This document shows, one piece after another, positions 6,346 to 50,110 of a DNA stretch of 64,000 bases. Each line of letters starts with the position of its first letter. Position 1 is the first letter of the stretch. A program made the position numbers and the translations under genes. The stretch comes from a plasmid. Location: sequence record NZ_CP049260.1; one strand, written 5' to 3'. The notes beneath the pieces are model-generated. The model made no database searches. It was not told where the DNA came from and worked only from the letters and a program-made list of their open reading frames with translations.

Positions 6346-6672
6346 GATCTCTCCGATTTGTTTTCCCGCGGTGTTTTGGCGTTTGTACCTGCTGGCGACG
6401 CCATGTGGTTGCATAAACAGCGAGAATGAAAAGTGGCGCAAGTGTATCGTAAATGGCAGACGAATGTTACGGTCTGGAGGCAGATGCCGCGGTGTCGATA
6501 TCAAGTTTAATAGTGCGCGCAATCTATCTTATGTTAAATAACCATATTGTGGCCGATAATTTCCGGTTTTCAGTTGCCACTCTTCTCCATGTCATGCTTA
6601 CTATAAAACGTTTATCACAAAGCCGGCTCCTGCGCTTATCAACAGCGTAAACGACAAAGAGAAAAGCATTTT

Positions 6673-7061
6673 ATGACAGCTCCAGAACTGACGTTTTATG
6701 AGGATGATGAAGGAATTTCCGTTGACCTGGTGTTATCGGCGTTTGGCGAAAACCCTGTCCAGTGCATAAATCTGGATGCTGATACAGTCGATAAAAAATA
6801 TCAGGCTGATATTCATTTTCTTATTAAGAATCAAAATGCTTTTCTTGAGAAAATCACTGATGAAGCCAGCGAATACTGCCAGCGAGTGTATGGTTGCGCT
6901 GCAAAAAATCTTCTCCTGATAAAATTTATCTTTCTCCTGAGACGGAAAAAAGTTTTGGATTTATGTTTTCTGTCGATGTGGATCCCGAACACGGATTGGG
7001 ATTGAAATTCAATGGGTTGCAGTTGATGAAAACAGGTAGTAGCGAAGCGGCATTTTTATAG
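6673..7061 (+). pseudogene. Acidic immunity-like protein, apparently frameshifted at an A6 run
   Basis: The ORF 6673..7005 leaves its frame at 'gctgcaaaaaatc'. Another frame continues as KKSSPDKIYLSPETEKSFGFMFSVDVDPEHGLGLKFNGLQLMKTGSSEAAFL* and stops at 7061. The region is AT-rich and sits immediately upstream of a SUKH immunity gene. Confidence 0.35.
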
Positions 7062-7163
7062 TATTTTAAAGCAATCTGGCGTGAACTTATCTTTAACTTT
7101 CAAGATAATATCTCTACTGATAGATTGAAAGAGCCAGTCACCCTAACTCAGAGAAGGAAAAGT

Positions 7164-7685
7164 ATGCCGGTTTCCTGTGGAAAAATGATTACAGAAGCGG
7201 ATATCCAGCGGCTGGAAAAAACATACTGCATCAGCTTGCCTGAAGATTATAAAACGTTCCTTCTGTTAAATAATGGCTTTGTGGTTAAAAGCCCGGATTA
7301 TTGTAATTTAGCGTATGGCGGTGTCGATGAGGGCGCTATTGCGTTCAATGCCCTGTTTGGGATAGGAACTAAAAATGAATACTATGATATTGAGTATAAT
7401 AATGAAGAACTATTCAGTGAACTGGATTTTATCGACAGCAAATTAATCATCGGCGACGATCCGGGCGGTAACTATTATTTGATGCTGAATGGAGAACACC
7501 AGCAAGGCCTGTTTTACTGGGACAGAACGCATCTGCATGCGGAAGATACTCTTCAGGATTTTGAGATACCCGAGCAAAATGAGTGCGGGAACCTTTACAG
7601 GTTGAGCGATTCATTTACGCAATTCTATCAAAGCGTTATCGACAATACGCTTGCTCAGGGAATGCAGGTAACGCGTGATCTGTGA
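7164..7685 (+). CDS. SMI1/KNR4 (SUKH-1) family immunity protein
   Basis: The conserved SUKH N-terminal signature '...LEKTYCISLPEDYKTFLLLNNGF...' (LPxxYxxFLxxxNG) is present. The protein is about 173 aa and acidic, with a GAAGGAAAAG ribosome-binding site. It lies in an AT-rich islet with no adjacent toxin gene. Confidence 0.7.
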   Translation: MPVSCGKMITEADIQRLEKTYCISLPEDYKTFLLLNNGFVVKSPDYCNLAYGGVDEGAIAFNALFGIGTKNEYYDIEYNNEELFSELDFIDSKLIIGDDPGGNYYLMLNGEHQQGLFYWDRTHLHAEDTLQDFEIPEQNECGNLYRLSDSFTQFYQSVIDNTLAQGMQVTRDL

Positions 7686-7802
7686 TAGCCATTACTGACG
7701 CCGCTTCGCCATTTCCCGCGCCAGCGCGCAGCCAGAAATGGTACTATCTTACTCATAACGCCCTGTCCCGGCAGGCATAAACACCACCATCAGGAACGCC
7801 CT

Positions 7803-8048
7803 ATGAGTAATGATATTCCTATCAAGTTTTATGACATCGCTGACGAGTACGCGACGGAAACGGAGTTGCCGGTAAGCGATGCGGAGCGCGACCGCCTGGC
7901 GAACTACTTCCAGCTGTTAATCACCCGTCTGATGAACAACGAAGAAATCAGCGAAGAAGCGCAGCATGAGATGGCGCGGGAAGCGGGTATTTCTGAAGGG
8001 CGTATCGATGAAATCGCCAACTTCCTGAATCAGTGGGGCAACGAGTAA
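7803..8048 (+). CDS. Small acidic hypothetical protein (81 aa)
   Basis: A clean ORF with a ribosome-binding site, followed by a strong terminator. I do not recognise a family. Confidence 0.45.
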
Positions 8049-12400: not shown

Positions 12401-13136
12401 AGCGCAGTCGAGAGAAGGAAAATTACCCGCTGAGTGACATTGTCACGTTTTAAGCGGTTCCGTGGGCTGTTAACCCGCTATGGCGGCGGGGAAACCACAC
12501 AACGGCTGGCTTCTTTAAATGCTATGTGTGCACTACGGTTACGCGTTAGCGGAACAGGTCAAACGGTAACTGATCTTTAACAAAATTAATCTATCGCTGC
12601 ACACGCCAGTGTGCAGCGTCGGCTGCCTGAAGAGAACGTTCAGGCGCAAATTATCAGGCCAGTTATCATCCGCAGGGCGCGCCGGGATCCCAGGACGTGA
12701 CTGTTGGGAGTGACGGATCGCAGCGCATAAACACACACATGCCAGGCGTTGATGTCTGCCGTCTCTCTTTACTTTTTATGAATGGTTAAAAACAGCAGAA
12801 TAATATTAGAAACGCTTAAGAATTTTCTTGGTTTCTGAAACCGGTCTCATCTTTCAATCCACATATGGCTTTATTTTTGTGTTTTTAATCAGGCTTACCT
12901 TTACTGATACTTTCCTAACAATATCTCCATACTTTTTTAAATAGATGGCACGATATAACCTTTTCAATAAGTTCTAAAACTGTGTTTTAAATAAAAGGAA
13001 TAATGGGTGAGGTAATAAAAGCCGTACGCTATTTCACCACGGTGATTAAAGAAGATACAGATAAGTGGATGAAAAAAGGAGATTTAATGGAAGAGCGGAA
13101 GCGTCATCAGCCCTGATAACGCTTCCGGGAGAGTGT

Positions 13137-13250
13137 TTAACGGCGCTTGCCGCCGCGTGAAGGCAGCGTACGCGATTTCACCAGAACAGTATGCTTATAA
13201 AAAGCATAGCCGATGATGACAACCAAAAAGACAATCAATGCTATGGTCAT
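13137..13250 (-). CDS. Candidate 37-aa small membrane protein with one TM helix and a basic tail
   Basis: A strong AGGAAGG ribosome-binding site lies 8 nt upstream of an ATG. The protein is MTIALIVFLVVIIGYAFYKHTVLVKSRTLPSRGGKRR. It sits in an AT-rich non-coding stretch, convergent with another 37-aa ORF (13003..13116, +) across a hairpin. Confidence 0.3.
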   Translation of the reverse strand: MTIALIVFLVVIIGYAFYKHTVLVKSRTLPSRGGKRR

Positions 13251-13692
13251 TTTGACGATAACCTTCCTGATGGTGCGACTATTTTAATAATGACGGTATA
13301 TCATACATGAATCTATATTACAGATGCATCTTTATTATTTTCAGGGCTGTTTAGTCTGCGTTTAATAATATTCTGTGCCGCAATCCATTATCAATAGCAC
13401 GTTAAACCGGCGCAGGTTTTATCCCGAGGTTATTTGTTATGCACGTCCATGTTGGTGAAAAAAACGCCCGCTGATTTACGCTACCATAACCCCTGTATTC
13501 GGTTGTCATAGCAAAAACGGATGATCCGCTGTTTCCGCCCTTTCTGTTCTCCTCCACGATACCGCCTCTGTAGATTGCTACTTATTAAAATGTACCTTTG
13601 AAAAAGTAGCTTTACCGAAAAGCACGCTTAAGGGGATAATCCTGCTACTTTTTACGAGGCGCAACATCGCGGCTGCGTGCGTTTACGAGGGG

Positions 13693-14670
13693 ATGATGAC
13701 GGAACTGCCTGACGACAATCTGCTGCCCGGCCCTTTTTCAGGTCTCGATCCCCATGCGGTGTCGGTGGGTGACGAGGCGCGGCCTCTCAACCCGGCGATG
13801 GCCTATCTTTTAAGCCTGCCTTCCGCCGCGAGCCGCCAGACCATGCGATCCTTCCTGCATATCGTCGCAGGCATGCTCGGTGCTCGCGCGTTGCAGCACT
13901 GCCCCTGGGGCAGCCTGCGTCGTCATCATGTGCAAGGACTGCTGGAGATGCTGTCGGCTTCCGGGCGCGCACCTGCCACCATCAATACCTATCTGTCTGC
14001 CCTGAAAGGTACCGCGCGCGAGGCGTGGATGATGAAGCTGATGGACACCGACAGCTATCAGAAAATCCTTGCCGTGCGGGCGGTACGCGGCAGTCGTCTT
14101 ACCCGCGGGCGTGCCTTGACTCCGGAAGAAGTGCGCGCGCTGTTTTCGCTCTGCGAGCAGGACAAAAGCTGTAAAGGCCCGCGCGATGCGGCGATGCTGG
14201 CGGTGATGCTGGGCTGCGGACTGCGCCGTTCGGAAGTGGTCGGGCTGGATTATGCGAGCATTCTTGAGCAGGACCAGGCGCTGCGCGTGCTCGGCAAAGG
14301 AAACAAAGAGCGGCTGGCATTTATGCCGGACACCGTCTGGCAGCGGCTCCGGCACTGGACTGACAGCGTACGCGGCGAACACCCCGGCCCGCTCTTTACC
14401 CGCATCCGCGCGGGTGACGATGTCACGTCTGAGCGCCTGACCCCACAGGCGGTGTACCATATTCTGAACGAACGCCGTCTGCAGTGCGGCATCGATAACT
14501 GTGCACCGCACGATCTTCGCCGCACGTTCGCTTCCATGATGCTCGATAATGGCGAAGATCTGATAACGGTACGCGACGCAATGGGCCATGCCAGCGTCAC
14601 GACAACACAAAAATATGACCGCCGTGGCGATGCCCGCCTGCGCCGCGCGGCAGGCAAAATTAAGCTTTAA
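13693..14670 (+). CDS. Tyrosine site-specific recombinase (XerC/XerD-like phage-integrase family)
   Basis: A 325-aa protein with the C-terminal catalytic signature ...HDLRRTFAS...GH.SV.TTQ.YDRR (R..H..R..Y). Its size is typical of Xer-type rather than P4-type integrases. Confidence 0.85.
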   Translation: MMTELPDDNLLPGPFSGLDPHAVSVGDEARPLNPAMAYLLSLPSAASRQTMRSFLHIVAGMLGARALQHCPWGSLRRHHVQGLLEMLSASGRAPATINTYLSALKGTAREAWMMKLMDTDSYQKILAVRAVRGSRLTRGRALTPEEVRALFSLCEQDKSCKGPRDAAMLAVMLGCGLRRSEVVGLDYASILEQDQALRVLGKGNKERLAFMPDTVWQRLRHWTDSVRGEHPGPLFTRIRAGDDVTSERLTPQAVYHILNERRLQCGIDNCAPHDLRRTFASMMLDNGEDLITVRDAMGHASVTTTQKYDRRGDARLRRAAGKIKL

Positions 14671-14764
14671 AAAAGCGGTTAACGGCCCATTGCGTGGCCC
14701 GGCAAAATGTTACGCTCACCATCATCGTTCAACCCTTTCTCAACTTCCAAAACCAGGGACAGGC

Positions 14765-15988
14765 ATGGTTTCAACACTGACATGGATTGACCACGACAGC
14801 CGCGCGCGTGAACGCACACTTCGCATCCTCGCACAGTTCCAGGAAAAAGAGAGCCGGGATGAACTCGGCATCGGCACGGTGCGTGATAGCCTCGCGGACT
14901 TACTTTTTCCCGGCACCAGCACCATCCAGACACGGCTGCGTTATATGCTCTTCGTTCCCTGGATTTACCGGGCGCTGGAAGACAAAAAAGTGACTGCCGC
15001 GCAGTTTGCCGGCGCTGCGGATAAGCACGAAAGAGAACTGGTCAGACGGCTCCAGACGGCCGATGACCATCACGGGATGTTCGGTAAAAATGCCGGTGGA
15101 GATATTAAACGTCTGCCCAGCTCCGTTTACTGGGCTGGTCTTGGTGCCTGGCACATTCGGCTTACACCTTTTTCTCAGGGCCAGTATCACCAGCGGATCG
15201 ATGAGACCTATCGCCAGAAGCACCGCATTGCACGCCAGCAGCGTCACGCCCGCGATCGCGCGGATGATCCCGATACCGAACCCGACAACGTGCATAACTG
15301 GCATCCGCGGTTACCGGCGACGCCTGCTGACTTTCCTGAAAAGGTGACGTTCCTGCTCACTCGCGATGAGGCTGAGTTCATCCGCGACCGTCTCCAGGCG
15401 GCATGTCCGCACAGCCTGCTGGCCTTTCTGGCCTTACAGGACGATAAGCCGACAGGCGCGTATCCCTGGGAGTATGCCAATAGCGGTCGCTTTTCCGCGA
15501 CACATCAGACGATCCTTCACCATGCACGCCTTTTCTCGGAAGTCATGCATGGCGCGGCGCTCTCCTATAACTACCAGCTTGCCGAAAAGATCGAGCATGA
15601 AGGGCTGCGTGAGCTTCATGAAGAGAATTTTCAGGAATGGCGCAATGCTCTGCCGCTTGCGGAGATTGCACGCTGGAACATAAACGAGTTGTGGGCGCTT
15701 ACTCACCGGGAAGGCCATCAGATAGCTCCGCAGACACGCCATTTTATCGAATCCTGGGTGCGGTATCTTCGCACGACGCCAGACGCGCTTCTGATGGGCG
15801 ATGCCAGCGCGCTGATTCAGTATCGTGAAAAAAAATTAAAAGGACCGCGCTCGCGGTTCACTAACAAGCGCGCGCAGGAGCAATGGCGCGGTCACTCGGG
15901 TACGAGACGGATCAATTATCGCTGGAATACTGTTAAAACGTTGCTCGCTGATTTGCACCAGGGGCTGTGTCAGGAGGCGGTATGCTAA
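14765..15988 (+). CDS. Unknown-function protein (about 408 aa), first gene of the integrase-linked three-gene module
   Basis: An ATG at 14765 follows the integrase stop by 95 nt. Its stop overlaps the next gene's start (ATGCTAA). Conserved-looking N-terminal block: ILAQFQEKESRDELGIGTVRDSLADLLFPGTSTIQTRLRYMLFVPWIY. I cannot assign a family. Confidence 0.55.
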   Translation: MVSTLTWIDHDSRARERTLRILAQFQEKESRDELGIGTVRDSLADLLFPGTSTIQTRLRYMLFVPWIYRALEDKKVTAAQFAGAADKHERELVRRLQTADDHHGMFGKNAGGDIKRLPSSVYWAGLGAWHIRLTPFSQGQYHQRIDETYRQKHRIARQQRHARDRADDPDTEPDNVHNWHPRLPATPADFPEKVTFLLTRDEAEFIRDRLQAACPHSLLAFLALQDDKPTGAYPWEYANSGRFSATHQTILHHARLFSEVMHGAALSYNYQLAEKIEHEGLRELHEENFQEWRNALPLAEIARWNINELWALTHREGHQIAPQTRHFIESWVRYLRTTPDALLMGDASALIQYREKKLKGPRSRFTNKRAQEQWRGHSGTRRINYRWNTVKTLLADLHQGLCQEAVC

Positions 15989-17799
15989 GCCCGGATGCAA
16001 GAAGCCTCTATACCGCCGCGCTGACGCCACCGCCGGGTATGCGTTTTGATGAGGCGCTGGCCACGACATTTTCACTGGATCCTACCTGTCTGCTCGAAGC
16101 GCCGGTGCATCTTGCACTGATGTCCATGGAAAACCAGGCAGAACAGGACGGCCTGGCCATGCTTGAATCCCTGCGTCGTTATGCCGGACGCATGACGGTC
16201 TATGTTCAGCGCGGACGCATTCAGTTGCCTGCCATAGTGCGACCCAATCCGTTATTTAGTCTGCTTGAGCCGATGATTGTCGAAGTGAGCGCGCCCAACG
16301 GCGGTGTGTTTCACCCGAAAATCTGGGTGTTGCGTTTTGTCGCTCCCGGTCAGGACACGGTGATGTACCGCCTGTTGGTGCTAACCCGCAATATAACGAC
16401 CGATCGCTCGTGGGATCTTTCGCTGCAGCTTGAAGGCGTCATGGGGCGCAAAAAAAGGCCGGTGAATAAGCCGCTGGATTATCTGCTGCGCCTGCTGCCG
16501 GGTCTCGCGAGCAGAGGCATTGCAGATGAGAAAACGATGCAGGCGCAGCGAATTGCTGATGAGCTTTATCGCGTTGAATGGGAGTTACCGGCAGGTTTTC
16601 AGGAGATGGCGTTTTATCTGCCGGGTATTAAGGCATTTAACTGGATCCCGCCTGCCTCACTGCGCATGGCTGTCATTTCACCGTTTTGTTCCGATGAGGC
16701 GCTGAACGCGCTGGTACAAACGACACAGCGTGCCGAGGCGTTGATTTCCCGCCCGGAGGCGCTGGCAGCGTTAAAACCCGCCACGCGGGAGGCGTTCACG
16801 CAGTGCTCTCATTTAGACGATGCTGCGGAAACCGACGATGGTGAAGACACAGACGTTGTCGATATGGCGGCATCGCTCGCGACGGGCCTGCACGCCAAAG
16901 CGTATCTTTTTGAAACCCAATATTATTCTTTATATACGCACCTCGTAATGGGCTCTGCCAACGCGACTGATGCCGCGCTAAAAGCTGCCAGAAATATTGA
17001 GTTGCTGGTCGAGCTAAAGGGGCGCCAGCGCGATATCGGCGGCATCGATACGTTGCTGGGCAAAGAGGGGATGGGCGAATATCTGGTGGATTTTCAGGCA
17101 GATGAGTTACCGCCGGTGGATGCAAACGCCCAGGCTGCCGCGCAGGCGCTGGAACACGCCAGAGCACAACTGGCCGCGTTGCCGCTGTCGCTTATCTGCG
17201 ATCCGGTGGACGATGAGCAGTGGCGGCTCACGCTGGAGGGCGTTTTGCCGAAGTTTAAAGGTGTTGCGACGCTCAAGGCGTGGCCGGTCACGCTCATTGG
17301 CGAACACGCGGTTTTATTGCCGACAGAAGGCGCTGACGGCCCTTTCCCCCTCGGGCAGTTTTCGCTGCGGGCTGTCACCGGGCTGACGGCGTTTGAGCTC
17401 TCTACCCGCGAGCCCGCGTTGTGCGTCCGGTTTGTGCTTAATCTGCCCGTGACGGGCATGCCTTCAGAGCGCAACGCGGCTATTCTGCAAAGCGTTATCA
17501 GCAACCCTGACGGCTTTCTGCGTTATCTGCTGTTATTGCTGGATCAGGATGACCCCGCACTGCCGCTACAGGAAAAGTACAGAGTCGCTGCCGGGTGGCT
17601 GGCCCGTCTTGCCGATGGTGAGGATTTTCCTCTGCTGGAAATGCTGACACGCGCCGCCAGCCGTACGCCAGAACGTTTAAAAGAAATCGCGTCGCTTATC
17701 GGTGAGCTGCGCCAGGGAAACCGGAACGCGGTGATCCCGGAGGATTTTCTGGCGCTCTGGACGGTATTTGAAGCCGCCATGGAGGACGCGAATGTCTGA
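15982..17799 (+). CDS. Phospholipase-D superfamily (two HKD-motif) putative nuclease with a roughly 280-aa C-terminal extension
   Basis: Two HxK motifs are present: 'FHPKIWVLRF...TRNIT' and the canonical 'LHAKAYLFE...VMGSANATD' (HxK...GSxN). An AGGAGG ribosome-binding site is present. The start overlaps the upstream stop and the stop overlaps the downstream start (ATGTCTGA). Confidence 0.7.
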   Translation: MLSPDARSLYTAALTPPPGMRFDEALATTFSLDPTCLLEAPVHLALMSMENQAEQDGLAMLESLRRYAGRMTVYVQRGRIQLPAIVRPNPLFSLLEPMIVEVSAPNGGVFHPKIWVLRFVAPGQDTVMYRLLVLTRNITTDRSWDLSLQLEGVMGRKKRPVNKPLDYLLRLLPGLASRGIADEKTMQAQRIADELYRVEWELPAGFQEMAFYLPGIKAFNWIPPASLRMAVISPFCSDEALNALVQTTQRAEALISRPEALAALKPATREAFTQCSHLDDAAETDDGEDTDVVDMAASLATGLHAKAYLFETQYYSLYTHLVMGSANATDAALKAARNIELLVELKGRQRDIGGIDTLLGKEGMGEYLVDFQADELPPVDANAQAAAQALEHARAQLAALPLSLICDPVDDEQWRLTLEGVLPKFKGVATLKAWPVTLIGEHAVLLPTEGADGPFPLGQFSLRAVTGLTAFELSTREPALCVRFVLNLPVTGMPSERNAAILQSVISNPDGFLRYLLLLLDQDDPALPLQEKYRVAAGWLARLADGEDFPLLEMLTRAASRTPERLKEIASLIGELRQGNRNAVIPEDFLALWTVFEAAMEDANV

Positions 17800-20700
17800 T
17801 AATCGATTTTCTGCGCAGGCAGCGCTGGCCACGCTGAAAGATTTTCAGTGTGATACGGTCGATTATGTGTTTGAGCGGCTGTTTGGCGAAAACAACACCA
17901 CGCGGTTTCTTGTCGCCGATGAAGTCGGGCTTGGCAAGACATTGATTGCACGGGGCGTTATCGCCAGAACGCTGGAACATCTGCAGGATAAAAAAGATCG
18001 TGTCGATATCATCTATATCTGCTCCAGCGCGGCGATTGCTGGTCAGAATCAAAAAAGGCTCAATCTCAGCGGCTCGGAAGGGTTCTCGCTCTCTACCCGG
18101 CTGACCTATCTGCCACGGCAGGTCAGCGAGCTGCGCAATAATAAAGTTAACTTTATCAGCCTGACGTCAGGCACAACCTTCGACCATACCGTAAGCCGTG
18201 AAGGCCATGCGGGAGAGCGCGCCATTTTGTACCGGATTTTGTATGACCTCCCGCTGGGCCAGGGCGAGCGACGCGCCCGGTTGCGTACAGGGCTGTTAAA
18301 TCTTCTACAGGCGCGAATGGGAAAAGCGAGCTGGCGCGCCACCGCGCAGGGGCTGCGGGCTGATGAACTGGATAATGACCTCTGCCGGATGTTCCGACGC
18401 GAAGTGCTCGACGATAAACCGCTTTACGCGCAGCTTAAGCAGGGTTGCGAGCAGTTTATACGTTACCGTGACAGCAGCCGGATCCCGCCAGACGATACGC
18501 AGTTACGGCTTCGGCTTATCATGGCGCTGCGTCAGAAACTGGCTTTCGTTTGTCTGAAGGCCCTGAAGCCCGATCTGGTGATCCTCGATGAGTTTCAGCG
18601 GTTTAAGCATCTACTGGACGCTGAAGACGATACCGCGCGGCTCGCCACAGCCCTGTTTGAACAGAAGGAGGCGCGTGTTCTGCTGCTTTCCGCCACGCCT
18701 TATAAAATGTTCACGCTGGATAACGAAACCGGGGAAGACGATCATTACCCGGATTTTATCCGCACACTGTCATTTCTGATGCGCGATCCGGCGCAGGTCA
18801 ACCACGTCAGCGCGCTGCTTTCCGCTCACCGGGCCGCACTGCATGCCGGTATACCTGAAGGTGAAAAAGCACGTCTTCAGGATGCGCTTTTGCGTGTGAT
18901 GTGCCGCACCGAAAGGATTTCTGATACCCGCGACCGTAACGCCATGCTCGTTGAAGTTCCCCGCATAGCGCCGCTGCAGGCCGCGGATATCCGGCATATT
19001 CGTGCCGTTGATGCGGTTGCGGCCTGTGTGGACTCAGGCGATCTGGTGGAGTACTGGAAATCGACGCCCCATTTGCTCAACTTTCTGAAGCGCTATGCGC
19101 TGCGTAATAAACTTGATGCGGCTATCGATGCGCCGTCACCTGCGCTCTCTGCGGCGCTGAGAGCGGCCCGCGATGAGTGGCTGACGCCCGGTCAGCTGGA
19201 TGATTACCAGCCGCTTGAACCCGGCAACGCGCGGATGCGGCTTCTTTTTGAAGACACCATCGATAACGGGCTCTGGCAACTGTTATGGATGCCGCCATCG
19301 CTTCCGTATTACACACCAGGCGGCGTCTGGCAGGGGAAAAGCCATCTTACCAAGACGCTTATCTTCTCCTGCTGGAATGCGGTGCCGGATGCTATCGCCA
19401 CGCTCTGCTCTTATGAGGCAGAGCGCCGGATGGTCAGCGGCGCGTCGGTGACGCATCGCGAGCTTTATCAGAAAATCAAACCGCTGTTGCGGTTTGCGAA
19501 AGCCAGCGCGGACGACCGTCTGACCGGTATGCCAGTCATGGCATGGCTGATGCCCTCACCGGTCCTGGCGACGGCGATTGATCCACTCACGATGGCCTGT
19601 GCCGGGAATAACGGCCCGCTCCCGCTGGAAACCGTGCTGGAAGCCGCCCGTGACATCTGCGAGACGCTTGTCGCCGCTTTACCCTCCAGCCCGGCGGAGG
19701 GCAAAGCCGATCCGCGCTGGTACTGGGCTGCGCCGGTGCTGCTCGATGCGCAGGGCGGGCTACTGGCGTGGTGTAAAGATCCACAAGGCTGGCGGGCGCT
19801 GGTGACGCCTGATGCGGATGACGACTCCCACTTCACCGCGCATCTGGAACAGCTGACAGACGCCGCCGAGGGACGCCTTACGCTCGGGCCGAAGCCAGAC
19901 GATCTGGTGGACGTGCTCGCGCTGTTCGCGCTTGGCGGGCCTGGTACCTGCGCATTGCGTGCGTTACAGAGGCTGGATCCGCAGACGTCGTGCGACAGCA
20001 TGGCCCTTCTCACCGGTGCGGCGACCATCGCCTCGGGGTTCAGAACCCTGTTCAACATGCCGGAGACCATTGCGATGCTGCGTGGCGCAAGTGAGGAGAC
20101 CTACTGGCGTTTAACGCTGAAATATGGAGTTGAGGGCAATCTGCAATCCATGCTGGATGAATATGTCCATACGCTCCGGGAATCGCCTGGCGTGCAGGGA
20201 TCTGGCGTCGCGGCACAGGTGGCCACCCTGTCCGCGCATATCCAGTCTGTTCTATCGTTGCGTGTCTCCCGGCTGCATCTGGACGCGCTGGAGGCTAACG
20301 ATGCGGGCTTTGAGCGTGTAGAGTTTTCGACCCGCTGCCGCTTTGCGCTGCGGTTTGGTGATATCCGGGATGACAATAACGACGCGCTGGTACGGGCAGA
20401 AAGCGTTCGCGATGCTTTCAATTCGCCGTTTCGCCCGTTTGTACTGGCTTCCACGTCCATTGGCCAGGAAGGGCTCGATTTTCATACGTGGTGCCATGCG
20501 GTGATGCACTGGAATCTTCCTGCAAATCCTGTCGATTTAGAGCAACGCGAGGGCCGGGTGCATCGTTACAAAGGGCATGCGGTGCGGAAAAATATCGCGC
20601 ATGCTTATGGCATAGCGAGCCTTAAGGGCCACAACGCGGGCGACCCGTGGCAAACCCTTTTTGCGCGGGCAGCGCAGGACAGAGCGCCTGGGCAGTCCGA

Positions 20701-20953
20701 ACTTATCCCTTACTGGATCTTTGAGAACGGCCCGGCGCGCGTGGAGCGCCGTATTCCCGTGCTGCCTTACAGCCGGGAAACCGGCAAGCTCAAAAGACTG
20801 AAGCAGGGGCTCGCGTTGTATCGCCTGGCGTTCGGACAGCCGAGACAGGAGGACTTACTCTCAAGTCTCAGCCATAACGCCCCGATCTCTGAAGACGCCC
20901 TTGCCGGCGGGCTGATATCACTTAAGCCGCCCGGCCGGTCCGGTAAAGCGTAA
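17792..20953 (+). CDS. SNF2/RapA-like SF2 helicase (about 1053 aa) with an atypical motif II
   Basis: Motif I 'LVADEVGLGKTLIA' (SNF2/RapA type). Motif II 'LVILDEFQRFK' (DEFQ rather than DEAH). Motif III 'VLLLSATPYKM'. C-terminal motifs 'FVLASTSIGQEGLDF' and 'QREGRVHRY' (motif VI). A GGAGG ribosome-binding site is present and the gene is translationally coupled to the PLD gene. Confidence 0.8.
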   Translation: MSDNRFSAQAALATLKDFQCDTVDYVFERLFGENNTTRFLVADEVGLGKTLIARGVIARTLEHLQDKKDRVDIIYICSSAAIAGQNQKRLNLSGSEGFSLSTRLTYLPRQVSELRNNKVNFISLTSGTTFDHTVSREGHAGERAILYRILYDLPLGQGERRARLRTGLLNLLQARMGKASWRATAQGLRADELDNDLCRMFRREVLDDKPLYAQLKQGCEQFIRYRDSSRIPPDDTQLRLRLIMALRQKLAFVCLKALKPDLVILDEFQRFKHLLDAEDDTARLATALFEQKEARVLLLSATPYKMFTLDNETGEDDHYPDFIRTLSFLMRDPAQVNHVSALLSAHRAALHAGIPEGEKARLQDALLRVMCRTERISDTRDRNAMLVEVPRIAPLQAADIRHIRAVDAVAACVDSGDLVEYWKSTPHLLNFLKRYALRNKLDAAIDAPSPALSAALRAARDEWLTPGQLDDYQPLEPGNARMRLLFEDTIDNGLWQLLWMPPSLPYYTPGGVWQGKSHLTKTLIFSCWNAVPDAIATLCSYEAERRMVSGASVTHRELYQKIKPLLRFAKASADDRLTGMPVMAWLMPSPVLATAIDPLTMACAGNNGPLPLETVLEAARDICETLVAALPSSPAEGKADPRWYWAAPVLLDAQGGLLAWCKDPQGWRALVTPDADDDSHFTAHLEQLTDAAEGRLTLGPKPDDLVDVLALFALGGPGTCALRALQRLDPQTSCDSMALLTGAATIASGFRTLFNMPETIAMLRGASEETYWRLTLKYGVEGNLQSMLDEYVHTLRESPGVQGSGVAAQVATLSAHIQSVLSLRVSRLHLDALEANDAGFERVEFSTRCRFALRFGDIRDDNNDALVRAESVRDAFNSPFRPFVLASTSIGQEGLDFHTWCHAVMHWNLPANPVDLEQREGRVHRYKGHAVRKNIAHAYGIASLKGHNAGDPWQTLFARAAQDRAPGQSELIPYWIFENGPARVERRIPVLPYSRETGKLKRLKQGLALYRLAFGQPRQEDLLSSLSHNAPISEDALAGGLISLKPPGRSGKA

Positions 20954-20959
20954 CGCCGG

Positions 20960-48167: not shown

Positions 48168-48472
48168 TCTGTTACCTCATTTAATCCAGAAGTGAGCAGT
48201 GGCGCGATCGCGCGATTTCCGCTCCTGTGGCGCGCCTCAGGAACGTGAATGTGAAAGCATGATCCGGGTGCCGCAGCGGGCCGGTAGCGCGCAGGCCGCC
48301 TGTGTGAAAGCGGTTTTCTGCCTGGGAGGTACAACGGATAACGGATTGTCCCGACCCTGGCGGCATACGTGAACAATCATAGACCATTACCGGAGAAGTG
48401 CCGGGACGCGCGGCGGGGCGCGTCAGAAGAAGAGGTATCCGCACCGCGTTCGAAACGGCGCAGGATGAGAGA

Positions 48473-49801
48473 TTATGCGGCCGCGAGGCGCGCGCACTGC
48501 TGGCGCATGCCGTTAAAAATAACGTCGGCCAGAGAGGCAGGGAAATCCACCGGGAGCGCGTCGGCCACGCGCGCGATCACCGCAGGCGCGCTGGCTGTCA
48601 GCGCATCAATCATGTCGTTGACCTGCGCCGCCGACAGCCCGGCAAGCTCGCCCTGGCGCAGCCAGTGACGGCGGCGGATCTGGCTCAGATGGTAATAGTT
48701 ACTGCCGCTGCGCACCGCCATCGCCAGCTTGCACTTCTGCCAGGCTATCTGGTTATTACCCGGTCCGATGACCGGCCAGGCGGAAAGGACGTCGTAAAGC
48801 GGCGTCAGGTGGTAGCGGTTGCCGGGCAGATGCGCAATGCTGAAATTCTTGGCGTGGCCGTCGGTCGCGGCGAGGATCCAGAAAATAATCTGCGCGCGGA
48901 AGAAATTCGCGCGATCCGCCTGCGCGTTTTCTGAACGGCTCAGAACCGTCATGATATCACCGATGCCCGGCCCGCCGTCGGCCTGATATTTACGCAGCGG
49001 CGAGACGCCGAGCGCCTGGCACATATCTTCCTGCGGCAGACGCAGCCACCACTGCCCATCGGCCGAAAGACGCCGGTCGAAGCGTTCGACAATCAGCACT
49101 TTTTGCTCATCGAACTGCGCCATCTGCATGCGCGCGACCGGAATATCCCAGGCTTCCAGCAGCTGCGCGCAGAGCCATTCGTTTTCAATCGAGGTGCGCA
49201 TGTCCGCCTGCATATTGCCCACCAGCCCCAGCGGCAGTTTGAAAATATGCGTGGTGGGCGTATTGCCCTCCGGCAGGCACCACTGGCCTTCGTGCCATAG
49301 CAGCGCGGTTTTCTCCTGCGCGCCCGCAATGGAGAGCCGCAGCTCCTCTTCCCCGCCATGCTGGCCGGGAAAGGCCTCTGCGGTGTGGCGCAGCATCGCG
49401 GCAATATCCACTGTGGTGAGTGGCCGGGCGCGAATGGTAAAGAGCCCTTCCGGCGCTTCACCGGCAGGCAGCAGCTGAATGGCGCCGACGCAGTCACGTC
49501 CCAGCTCCGCCAGCAGATCGAACGGCTCCAGGCTCTGCGCCCGGTAGCGCATCGCCAGTCGCCGCCGGATGTTTTCGCTGTCCGGCAGCAGGTTGTCGAA
49601 GTAATCGCGCACCTGCGCGCCACGGTATGACTGATTACCGGGCGTGAACGGCAGCGACAGCGACAGCGGCCTGCCCTGCGGATCGGCAATCCACTCCGGC
49701 AGATAGGTCAGCCGGTCTTCGCCGTTGTGTTTATCCCAGTAACCGACCGGCAGGCCGTTCATCCAGAGCGCTAAACGCGACGTGCGGCGCATGATTACCA
49801 C
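48473..49801 (-). CDS. hipA: HipA-family serine/threonine kinase toxin
   Basis: A 442-aa protein that is collinear with E. coli HipA. It carries the ATDGHAKNFS catalytic-loop motif and the conserved LRLPQEDMCQA block. Confidence 0.85.
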   Translation of the reverse strand: MVIMRRTSRLALWMNGLPVGYWDKHNGEDRLTYLPEWIADPQGRPLSLSLPFTPGNQSYRGAQVRDYFDNLLPDSENIRRRLAMRYRAQSLEPFDLLAELGRDCVGAIQLLPAGEAPEGLFTIRARPLTTVDIAAMLRHTAEAFPGQHGGEEELRLSIAGAQEKTALLWHEGQWCLPEGNTPTTHIFKLPLGLVGNMQADMRTSIENEWLCAQLLEAWDIPVARMQMAQFDEQKVLIVERFDRRLSADGQWWLRLPQEDMCQALGVSPLRKYQADGGPGIGDIMTVLSRSENAQADRANFFRAQIIFWILAATDGHAKNFSIAHLPGNRYHLTPLYDVLSAWPVIGPGNNQIAWQKCKLAMAVRSGSNYYHLSQIRRRHWLRQGELAGLSAAQVNDMIDALTASAPAVIARVADALPVDFPASLADVIFNGMRQQCARLAAA

Positions 49802-50076
49802 ACCTCGCGGTGGGCAGGCGAATCGTCACGCGCGGGCGCGTCAGTCTCCGCCGCCTGCGTTTCGCACAGCGTCATCTCAATGCCCAGCACGTTAAAGACG
49901 CGGAACAGGCGCTCGATGCTGGCCGTTTCGGGGTTCGCCTCCAGCCGCGCGTAGGTTTGCTGCGTGACGCCAAGCCGCGCCGAAACCTCTTTCTGGGTCA
50001 GCCCCTGTTTTTTACGAAAGCCCACCAGCAGCGGGCGCAGCTGGCTGAGCGTTTTCAGTGGATACCGGGTGTTCAT
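49795..50076 (-). CDS. hipB: HipB antitoxin (XRE-family HTH repressor)
   Basis: A 93-aa protein whose HTH motif (QGLTQKEVSARLGVTQQTYARLE) is similar to E. coli HipB. Its last codons overlap the hipA start. Confidence 0.8.
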   Translation of the reverse strand: MNTRYPLKTLSQLRPLLVGFRKKQGLTQKEVSARLGVTQQTYARLEANPETASIERLFRVFNVLGIEMTLCETQAAETDAPARDDSPAHREVW

Positions 50077-50110
50077 CTTGCTGGTCGCACCTTCAGATAC
50101 ATACGATAAG

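Follow-up and report, generated by a model that had tools for sequence, protein, structure and literature searches.

In the present study, we analysed a 64,000-nucleotide stretch of plasmid DNA (sequence record NZ_CP049260.1; this whole stretch is called the window here) and found that, to judge by its sequence, positions 14765..20953 are a complete Azaca system (zacA-zacB-zacC), a defence system that has already been named. In this region the window shares 98.5% identity with pESA3 of Cronobacter sakazakii ATCC BAA-894 and 99.9% with NZ_CP011048, both of which are IncFIB, non-mobilizable plasmids. The window's list of open reading frames (ORFs) has four of them at this place, the zac genes and a gene for a tyrosine recombinase before them, and all four lie on the + strand and run in the same direction, as a preliminary description of this DNA had claimed. 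In RefSeq their products are called tyrosine recombinase, DUF6361 protein, phospholipase D family protein and helicase-related protein, and the same triad is found on pESA3. The features of the cassette are as follows:

14671..20959, + strand: Azaca cassette, a 6,289-bp presence/absence segment from the recombinase stop codon to the SDR stop codon
14671..14764, + strand: zacA leader, 94 nt, with a weak Shine-Dalgarno-like GGGA before the ATG at 14765
14765..15988, + strand: zacA, 407-aa DUF6361 protein with an all-helical model, a required subunit in the study of homologues
15982..17799, + strand: zacB, 605-aa nuclease of the phospholipase D (PLD) superfamily
17792..20953, + strand: zacC, 1053-aa ATPase-translocase of helicase superfamily 2 (SF2), SNF2/RapA/DrmD-like

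The junctions of the three genes were read directly. That of zacA and zacB is AGGAGG-n5-ATGCTAA at 15982..15988, with an overlap of 7 nt, and that of zacB and zacC is GGAGG-n6-ATGTCTGA at 17792..17799, with an overlap of 8 nt. Among related loci, zacA overlaps zacB in 56 of 70 (mode 7 nt) and zacB overlaps zacC in 59 of 62 (mode 8 nt). Since these modes are the same as the 7 and 8 nt of the window, the coupling is conserved and not due to chance, and the overlapping stop and start codons that had been pointed out for the last three genes are both present in the sequence and kept across related loci. The first of these genes had been given as 408 amino acids long; its ATG is at 14765 and not at 14762, so the protein has 407. 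The proposal of a tight unit of four genes is correct for zacA-zacB-zacC and fails for the recombinase, which ends 94 nt upstream and behaves independently.

The leader between the recombinase gene and zacA was scanned for a consensus promoter and terminator; neither was found, and the scan totals were no better than those of shuffled sequences. Because no promoter or terminator was recognised in these 94 nt, transcription of the recombinase gene may read through into zacABC, for which a scan no better than shuffles is weak evidence. The leader is partly kept in plasmid pCTU1 of C. turicensis. In addition, a 15-nt inverted repeat (93% complementary) has one arm in the 3' end of the recombinase gene (14573..14587) and the other at the left edge of the cassette (14684..14698), and it could be a chance pairing or a relic of insertion.

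Identity of the three genes

All three proteins were matched over their full length by PADLOC models of the Azaca subunits: ZacA by PDLC03828 (E 1.1e-141, profile positions 1-394 of 396), ZacB by the ZacB model (E 2.4e-187, positions 1-583 of 586) and ZacC by PDLC03830 (E 0, 1188 bits, positions 4-1016 of 1019). In Pfam, ZacA is DUF6361 (PF19888; E 4e-67, 227 bits against a cut-off of 25), and ZacC has matches to DEAD, Helicase_C and ResIII. Azaca, made up of a helicase, a PLD nuclease and a DUF6361 protein, is credited to Millman et al. 2022. In view of the full-length PADLOC matches, the module is Azaca and not the undescribed system that the preliminary description had taken it for, while its view of a nuclease, an SF2 helicase and a protein of unknown fold as a defence module proved right, these being the Azaca families. 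Those features of Azaca that can be read from sequence were all found, namely ZacA, ZacB with intact His/Lys motifs, ZacC with Walker A and B motifs, and a contiguous A-B-C order. The cassette holds the three zac genes alone, in agreement with the absence of a methyltransferase that had been reported.

Properties of the Zac proteins

The AlphaFold2 model of ZacA was built from 18 sequences and is all-helical, with a predicted local distance difference test score (pLDDT) of 71 and a predicted template modelling score (pTM) of 0.66; comparison of this model with solved structures gave no match. The ZacA family has 3,702 clusters at 50% identity, and the top 150 are all single-domain proteins of about 400 amino acids. 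Identity between the Cronobacter and Desulfobacterota proteins is 55-60%, and the Zac proteins are unusually conserved for defence genes.

In ZacB, the first motif is H111-P-K113 followed by N137, with Arg in place of Asp, and the second is H304-A-K306-x4-E311 followed by G324-S-A-N327; across 71 homologues, both are conserved to at least 95%. Hence, of the two HKD motifs that had been described, both catalytic His/Lys motifs are indeed there, and the canonical Asp is missing, which makes them of the HxK...N type. The match of ZacB to Pfam PLDc_2 is below threshold (16.5 against 27 bits), and the assignment to the PLD superfamily was therefore made by fold: the model is a strong match to this superfamily in the fold search, and its closest structural relative is Tdp1. 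Tdp1 is itself an 'HKN' enzyme. The predicted architecture of ZacB is a two-lobe HxK...N domain at about 10-350, a beta-sandwich at about 400-490 and a helical C-terminus, so that both lobes of the PLD active site are predicted to be carried by one chain. The model has a pLDDT of 65 and a pTM of 0.53, good at 10-230 and 400-470 and poor at about 257-340. Searches of the PDB with the ZacA and ZacB sequences gave no matches, and no solved Azaca structure was found there. A profile of ZacB homologues gave a borderline PDB match to the HKD motif of SauUSI (E 0.027), aligned to the second motif of ZacB.

The helicase motifs that had been named in the third protein were all located in ZacC, ADEVGLGKT at 42-50 (with Walker A, GLGKT, at 46-50), DEFQ at 266-269, LLLSATP at 297-303 and QREGRVHR at 918-925, and are at least 95% conserved among 63 homologues; over the whole protein, 235 of 1053 positions reach an identity of 95% or more in these homologues. 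A conserved segment of about 360 amino acids with no recognised domain (residues ~527-886, window 19370..20449) separates the motif IV-like TKTLIFS (520-526) from motif V (887-898) and is a candidate DNA-reader or a candidate docking region for ZacA or ZacB. A reader domain for modified bases (SRA, EVE, PUA and the like) was found neither by Pfam in the three subunits nor by fold search with ZacA and ZacB.

Distribution of Azaca and polymorphism of the cassette

To see the system outside this replicon, ZacA was scanned for in one genome per species, which gave 356 confirmed loci, 80 of which were kept for locus comparison. Provided that the contig is long enough, ZacA is followed by ZacB and then by ZacC in essentially all of the 80 loci and in many phyla; exceptions to this order are rare and resemble truncations or frameshifts (loci L035 and L069, for example). 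The loci include members of Desulfobacterota, Gamma-, Beta- and Alphaproteobacteria, Planctomycetota, Acidobacteriota, Myxococcota, Chloroflexota and Spirochaetia. Their neighbours, which were counted approximately by greedy longest-ORF calling followed by a Pfam scan of the nearest ORFs, include subunits of type I restriction-modification (R-M) systems, AbiE, BrxL, HipA, Fic, methylases and SmpB, a context typical of defence islands and integration hotspots. The family N6_N4_Mtase was found in 2 of 92 nearest downstream ORFs at the sampled loci and was absent among the upstream families listed.

Some of these and related loci have features of their own. In 5 of the 80 loci, from Geobacter and Desulfo- lineages, a 461-aa ORF without a Pfam family overlaps the stop codon of zacC (L009 16258-17640, L010 ~6452-7873, L011 16258-17640, L013 16261-17643 and L023 16252-17634); it may be an optional fourth gene of Azaca, which the window lacks. 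A gut scaffold labelled 'UNVERIFIED Bacteriophage sp.' (L090, MT835621.1, 797-12272) carries HsdS, an unmatched ORF and HsdR, and directly after them a divergent full ZacABC whose ZacA is ~30% identical; the scaffold is either a bacterial contig that was misclassified or a phage or mobile genetic element with a defence island. A DUF6361/ZacA homologue of 40% identity, with a helicase match nearby, is on the plasmid of Halomarina sp. BND7 (H129, NZ_CP100458.1, 31701-32888), and with this haloarchaeal plasmid Azaca crosses the boundary between bacteria and archaea. Oxalobacter paraformigenes has two short ORFs side by side upstream of Azaca (L005, 9203-9948); both encode the Arm-DNA-binding domain of P4-type integrases, and the pair looks like a frameshifted integrase remnant at the edge of an island.

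On the Cronobacter plasmids the cassette is polymorphic. Five of them have an empty site, in which the 6,289-bp segment is replaced by an unrelated spacer of ~27-33 bp; three are from C. sakazakii, including pCrono589-1 (L001), and two from C. malonaticus. In pCrono589-1, 27 bp separate the stop codon of the recombinase from that of the SDR gene (L001 7672-7700). Locus L088 was part of this comparison. Among PLSDB plasmids that have this locus, 18 from C. sakazakii are occupied and the 3 mentioned are empty. The cassette is also present, at a collinear locus, in C. turicensis pCTU1 (78% identity) and in a plasmid of C. dublinensis (72%); occupied and empty alleles are each present in more than one Cronobacter species. 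By alignment, the borders of the cassette fall exactly at the two stop codons, between 14670 and 14671 and between 20959 and 20960. No direct or inverted repeats and no target duplication flank the cassette, there being only short repeat families of chance size around it.

The setting on a virulence plasmid that had been claimed was borne out by the plasmid identity and by the flanking cargo, which is of the pESA3 type: remnants of a type VI secretion system, dsbDG, an iron ABC transporter with an MFS gene, the SDR gene, chemoreceptors, mgtA, an autotransporter, treYZ, hipAB, an aerobactin-like siderophore cluster and parAB. The hipA/helix-turn-helix (hipBA-type) toxin-antitoxin pair is at 115291-116894 of pESA3, ~28 kb downstream of Azaca, and projects to about 48,400-50,100 of the window through collinearity; it is another accessory or stability module of the same plasmid. 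A scan of the whole window with Rfam gave zero matches.

Function, proposed mechanism and alternatives

The mechanistic basis is one study, on BmAzaca and KpAzaca (bioRxiv 10.1101/2025.07.10.664194). In this study, E. coli with either system was protected more than 10^6-fold against T4, and specificity in vivo was narrow, for T4/T-even phages. The three Zac proteins form one complex, and purified BmZacABC degraded T4 double-stranded DNA (dsDNA), which carries glucosylated hydroxymethylcytosine, in preference to other phage and plasmid DNAs, from ~10 nM. DNA cleavage needed all three subunits and was abolished by mutations in the PLD site of ZacB or in Walker A of ZacC. The consensus of the cut sites is degenerate (A|NT), and the authors suggested glucosyl-hydroxymethylcytosine as a possible cue (bioRxiv 10.1101/2025.07.10.664194).

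When these results are set beside the intact state of the motifs, the coupled expression of the genes and a cassette without a methyltransferase, the best supported function is that of an ATP-dependent, modification-directed nuclease with three subunits. We consider it highly probable that the window carries a complete Azaca that works as a modification-dependent (Type IV-like) restriction enzyme of three subunits, and that the recombinase has no role in it. A Type IV-like, modification-sensing machine after the manner of a split SauUSI had been proposed before; this was well reasoned for sequence alone and agrees with the preprint in the preference for T4 DNA and in the need for three subunits, PLD site and Walker A. 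In the proposed mechanism, ZacC would load on or translocate along incoming hypermodified phage DNA at the expense of ATP, and this would license ZacB to cut through a covalent phospho-histidine intermediate, with ZacA as an obligatory subunit. Host and plasmid DNA, which lack the modification, would be spared, so that no methyltransferase would be needed. The targets would be T-even-like Cronobacter phages.

Several points weigh against this reading. Modification dependence is a possibility stated by the authors from the preference for T4 DNA, with no unmodified or non-glucosylated T4 control, and mutations of conserved ZacA residues left cleavage intact (bioRxiv 10.1101/2025.07.10.664194). 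The confidence of the ZacB model is moderate (pLDDT 65), and the region of its second HxK motif is poor. No promoter of its own was recognised upstream of zacA, so that expression may depend on read-through. Furthermore, the function given to the copy in the window is by analogy with BmAzaca and KpAzaca, the likeness to which was gauged through PADLOC profiles only.

The cue might be something other than base modification. In this case ZacC would sense free ends, nicks, replication or recombination intermediates or a phage protein and release ZacB as a broad nuclease, in the manner of Hachiman, and the preference for T4 would be incidental. The highly degenerate cleavage motif and a panel in which T4 DNA was the only good substrate, with no isogenic unmodified control, fit this idea, as do the nearest structural relative of ZacB, which processes DNA ends and adducts and is not a sequence-specific endonuclease, and the failure to detect an SRA-, EVE- or PUA-type reader domain in the searches described. 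However, the ~360-aa segment of ZacC and the beta-sandwich of ZacB are candidates for a reader surface, as is ZacA, which the preliminary description had taken for the reader. Hachiman-like systems are broad-spectrum, whereas the specificity of Azaca for T4/T-even phages in vivo is very narrow and the purified complex favours T4 dsDNA, and we regard a non-modification cue as plausible but unlikely.

A further reading goes beyond modification dependence as known. Since the fold of ZacB is like that of the 'HKN' enzyme Tdp1 and not of the Nuc/BfiI type, and the ZacA fold has no solved relative, Azaca might differ in mechanism from known Type IV enzymes and both recognise and process bulky DNA adducts, such as a glucosylated base, through a new reader or licensing subunit, for which the copy on the Cronobacter plasmid would make a handy enterobacterial model; separately, the integrase/SDR junction of pESA3-family plasmids might be a site of cassette exchange that is served by the recombinase. 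We consider this reading rather improbable.

The system might also serve the plasmid itself, for example by exclusion of rival plasmids or by a Tdp1-like DNA repair that helps the replicon. It is plasmid-borne and has long been resident in the pESA3/pCTU1 lineage, as its collinearity in C. turicensis and C. dublinensis at 78% and 72% identity indicates, and the Tdp1-like fold of ZacB would suit a repair role. Against this, ZacA is on just 39 of 72,556 plasmids, most members of the family are chromosomal and lie in defence islands beside R-M, Abi and BREX genes, and an anti-phage phenotype has been demonstrated for homologues, which makes a plasmid-serving role very improbable.

The neighbouring recombinase and its 32-bp site

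Two features upstream of the cassette belong together and stand apart from Azaca:

13578..13609, no strand: candidate core recombination site CTACTTATTAAAATGTACCTTTGAAAAAGTAG, 32 bp with imperfect inverted arms around a centre of ~10 bp
13693..14670, + strand: Xer-like tyrosine recombinase, 325 aa, a neighbour outside Azaca

The start of the recombinase in RefSeq is one codon downstream of 13693. The protein matches Pfam Phage_integrase (E 2.7e-29), is far below the cut-offs of the XerC/XerD models and has all the catalytic residues R-K-H-R-H-Y. Its homologues, mostly at 64-66% identity, are on 1,931 PLSDB plasmids of IncC, IncFIB, IncY and other types in Klebsiella, Salmonella, Escherichia, Enterobacter, Vibrio and Aeromonas, and they have unrelated neighbours: RepFIB/sopAB on an IncFIB plasmid, an exonuclease and a Tus-like gene on IncC and IS1/tetA on IncY. 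No name for this recombinase family was found in the sources searched.

The site CTACTTATTAAAATGTACCTTTGAAAAAGTAG is 84 bp upstream of the recombinase gene. It is 31-32/32 identical upstream of the distant, 64-66%-identical recombinases on IncFIB, IncC and IncY plasmids, where the flanks cannot be aligned (counterparts at L083 6844-6880, L084 5669-5700 and L085 4843-4879), and it is probably the core site of the recombinase family. To our knowledge, its sequence is unrelated to dif, cer and loxP. A search of the window that allowed up to 3 mismatches gave a single copy, with 0 expected. Around it, the ~1.3 kb between the MFS gene and the recombinase (12401..13692) has no annotated gene, a lower G+C (0.49-0.53) and no Rfam match, and is kept at 97% in an empty-site plasmid; it includes a palindrome at 13315..13338 and, directly behind the 32-bp site, a promoter-like sequence at 13611..13640.

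The preliminary description had supposed that the recombinase makes the module mobile or invertible, and we have to weigh a four-gene unit that is mobilised or inverted by the Xer-type enzyme. The co-directional genes, the distance of 94 nt from recombinase stop to zacA start with no terminator or promoter detected between, and a cassette edge exactly at the recombinase stop codon would all agree with such a unit. However, the recombinase is kept at the empty site in five plasmids of two species, and in a search with a hidden Markov model seeded with the window recombinase, a homologue lay within 10 kb of Azaca in only 1 of 80 loci, so that it is absent near the other 79. In this exception (L050) it is 2.3 kb downstream and on the opposite strand. 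Phage_integrase was likewise found in at most 1 of 95 nearest upstream and at most 1 of 92 nearest downstream ORFs at Azaca loci. Furthermore, the recombinase family lives on ~1,900 plasmids with other neighbours and belongs to plasmid backbones, the 32-bp site occurs once in 64 kb, the cassette has no flanking repeats, and the system already has a name. We thus give a four-gene unit scarcely any credence. An integrase-bounded mobile or invertible element was tried as a class for the locus and rejected, with neither two flanking recombination sites nor joint gain and loss of recombinase and cargo, and no mechanism is visible in the sequence by which the recombinase could invert or excise Azaca.

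The empty sites, the absence at other Azaca loci, the spread of the family and a site of its own make the recombinase look like a self-contained backbone module. Together with the 32-bp site it is most likely a site-specific recombination module of the plasmid backbone, of the multimer-resolution type, with no role in Azaca. Like the modules Cre/loxP, ResD/rfsF and Xer/cer, it combines a tyrosine recombinase gene with a nearby site, here of 32 bp, whose inverted arms surround a central spacer, and it is found on plasmid backbones of many Inc groups.

The value of these findings is mainly one of annotation, a complete Azaca on the widely studied C. sakazakii virulence plasmid pESA3, where the public annotation of the triad is still 'DUF6361 / phospholipase D family / helicase-related'. 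Our literature search turned up no paper that mentions Azaca on Cronobacter plasmids, and the finding is nevertheless a routine annotation of the DefenseFinder/PADLOC type and not a discovery. Since the cassette varies by strain and homologues block T4-type phages more than 10^6-fold, it could alter the host range of the T4-like phages that are proposed for Cronobacter biocontrol in infant formula. The Tdp1-like fold of ZacB and a ZacA without a solved relative may be of use in structural work on Azaca, and neither raises a new question. What value remains includes the conserved 32-bp site of a very widespread family of plasmid recombinases.

Comparison with known systems

We can dismiss a variant of DISARM, Dpd, Mokosh or a split SauUSI-type system in place of Azaca, an explanation with next to no probability: ZacC has partial matches to PADLOC DrmD, DpdE, BrxH, PDC-M27C and PLD_Helicase and to NCBIfam DpdE, DrmD and RapA, and ZacB has its SauUSI alignment and a match to PADLOC mREase_IV (E 0.0028), but these span ~50-90 residues of the helicase C-lobe or a single motif, with scores 10- to 20-fold below the cut-offs, whereas the Zac models match full length and the cassette has no DUF1998 protein, methylase, DpdA/queuosine gene or Mko match.

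Each of these systems was also considered by itself. Azaca is like DISARM in that a PLD protein and an SNF2-like helicase are together in one defence operon and the C-lobe of ZacC matches DrmD models. It differs in having neither DrmA/DrmB (DUF1998) nor a methyltransferase: no cassette protein matched the DrmA and DrmB core or the DrmMI/MII methylase, which upholds the earlier point on these absences, and in place of a full-length DrmD there is a match of 56.7 bits to NCBIfam DISARM_DrmD (cut-off 610) at ZacC residues 870-937 only. For Dpd, DpdE scored 63 bits against a cut-off of 500 over ~90 residues only, and no other dpd genes are in or beside the cassette. For Mokosh, no MkoA, MkoB or MkoC model was among the PADLOC matches at E <= 0.01. 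A single polypeptide of the SauUSI type, with PLD, helicase and SRA-like domain, was not found either. SauUSI (PDB 7clg), a Type IV enzyme, has PLD, SF2 helicase and SRA-like reader in one chain with half a PLD site, and dimerises. In Azaca, by comparison, a single ZacB chain is predicted to supply both lobes, the motor function falls to a protein of its own, ZacA is needed as a third subunit, and an SRA-like domain was not detected.

Like Tdp1, ZacB lacks the motif Asp and, by its model, would belong to the 'HKN' branch of the PLD superfamily. The two proteins share ~11-12% sequence identity. Tdp1 is a monomeric repair enzyme for 3' adducts, whereas ZacB works only with ZacA and ZacC; ZacB also has the extra beta-sandwich and helical domains and keeps the acidic E311 in its second motif.

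Overall, the closest likeness is to Azaca itself, with the same three families at full length, the same gene order and coupling, intact PLD and Walker A/B motifs and no methyltransferase. Compared with other Azaca loci nothing substantial differs: the copy in the window is without the extra downstream ORF of 461 amino acids, and it is on a Cronobacter virulence plasmid, beside a backbone recombinase.

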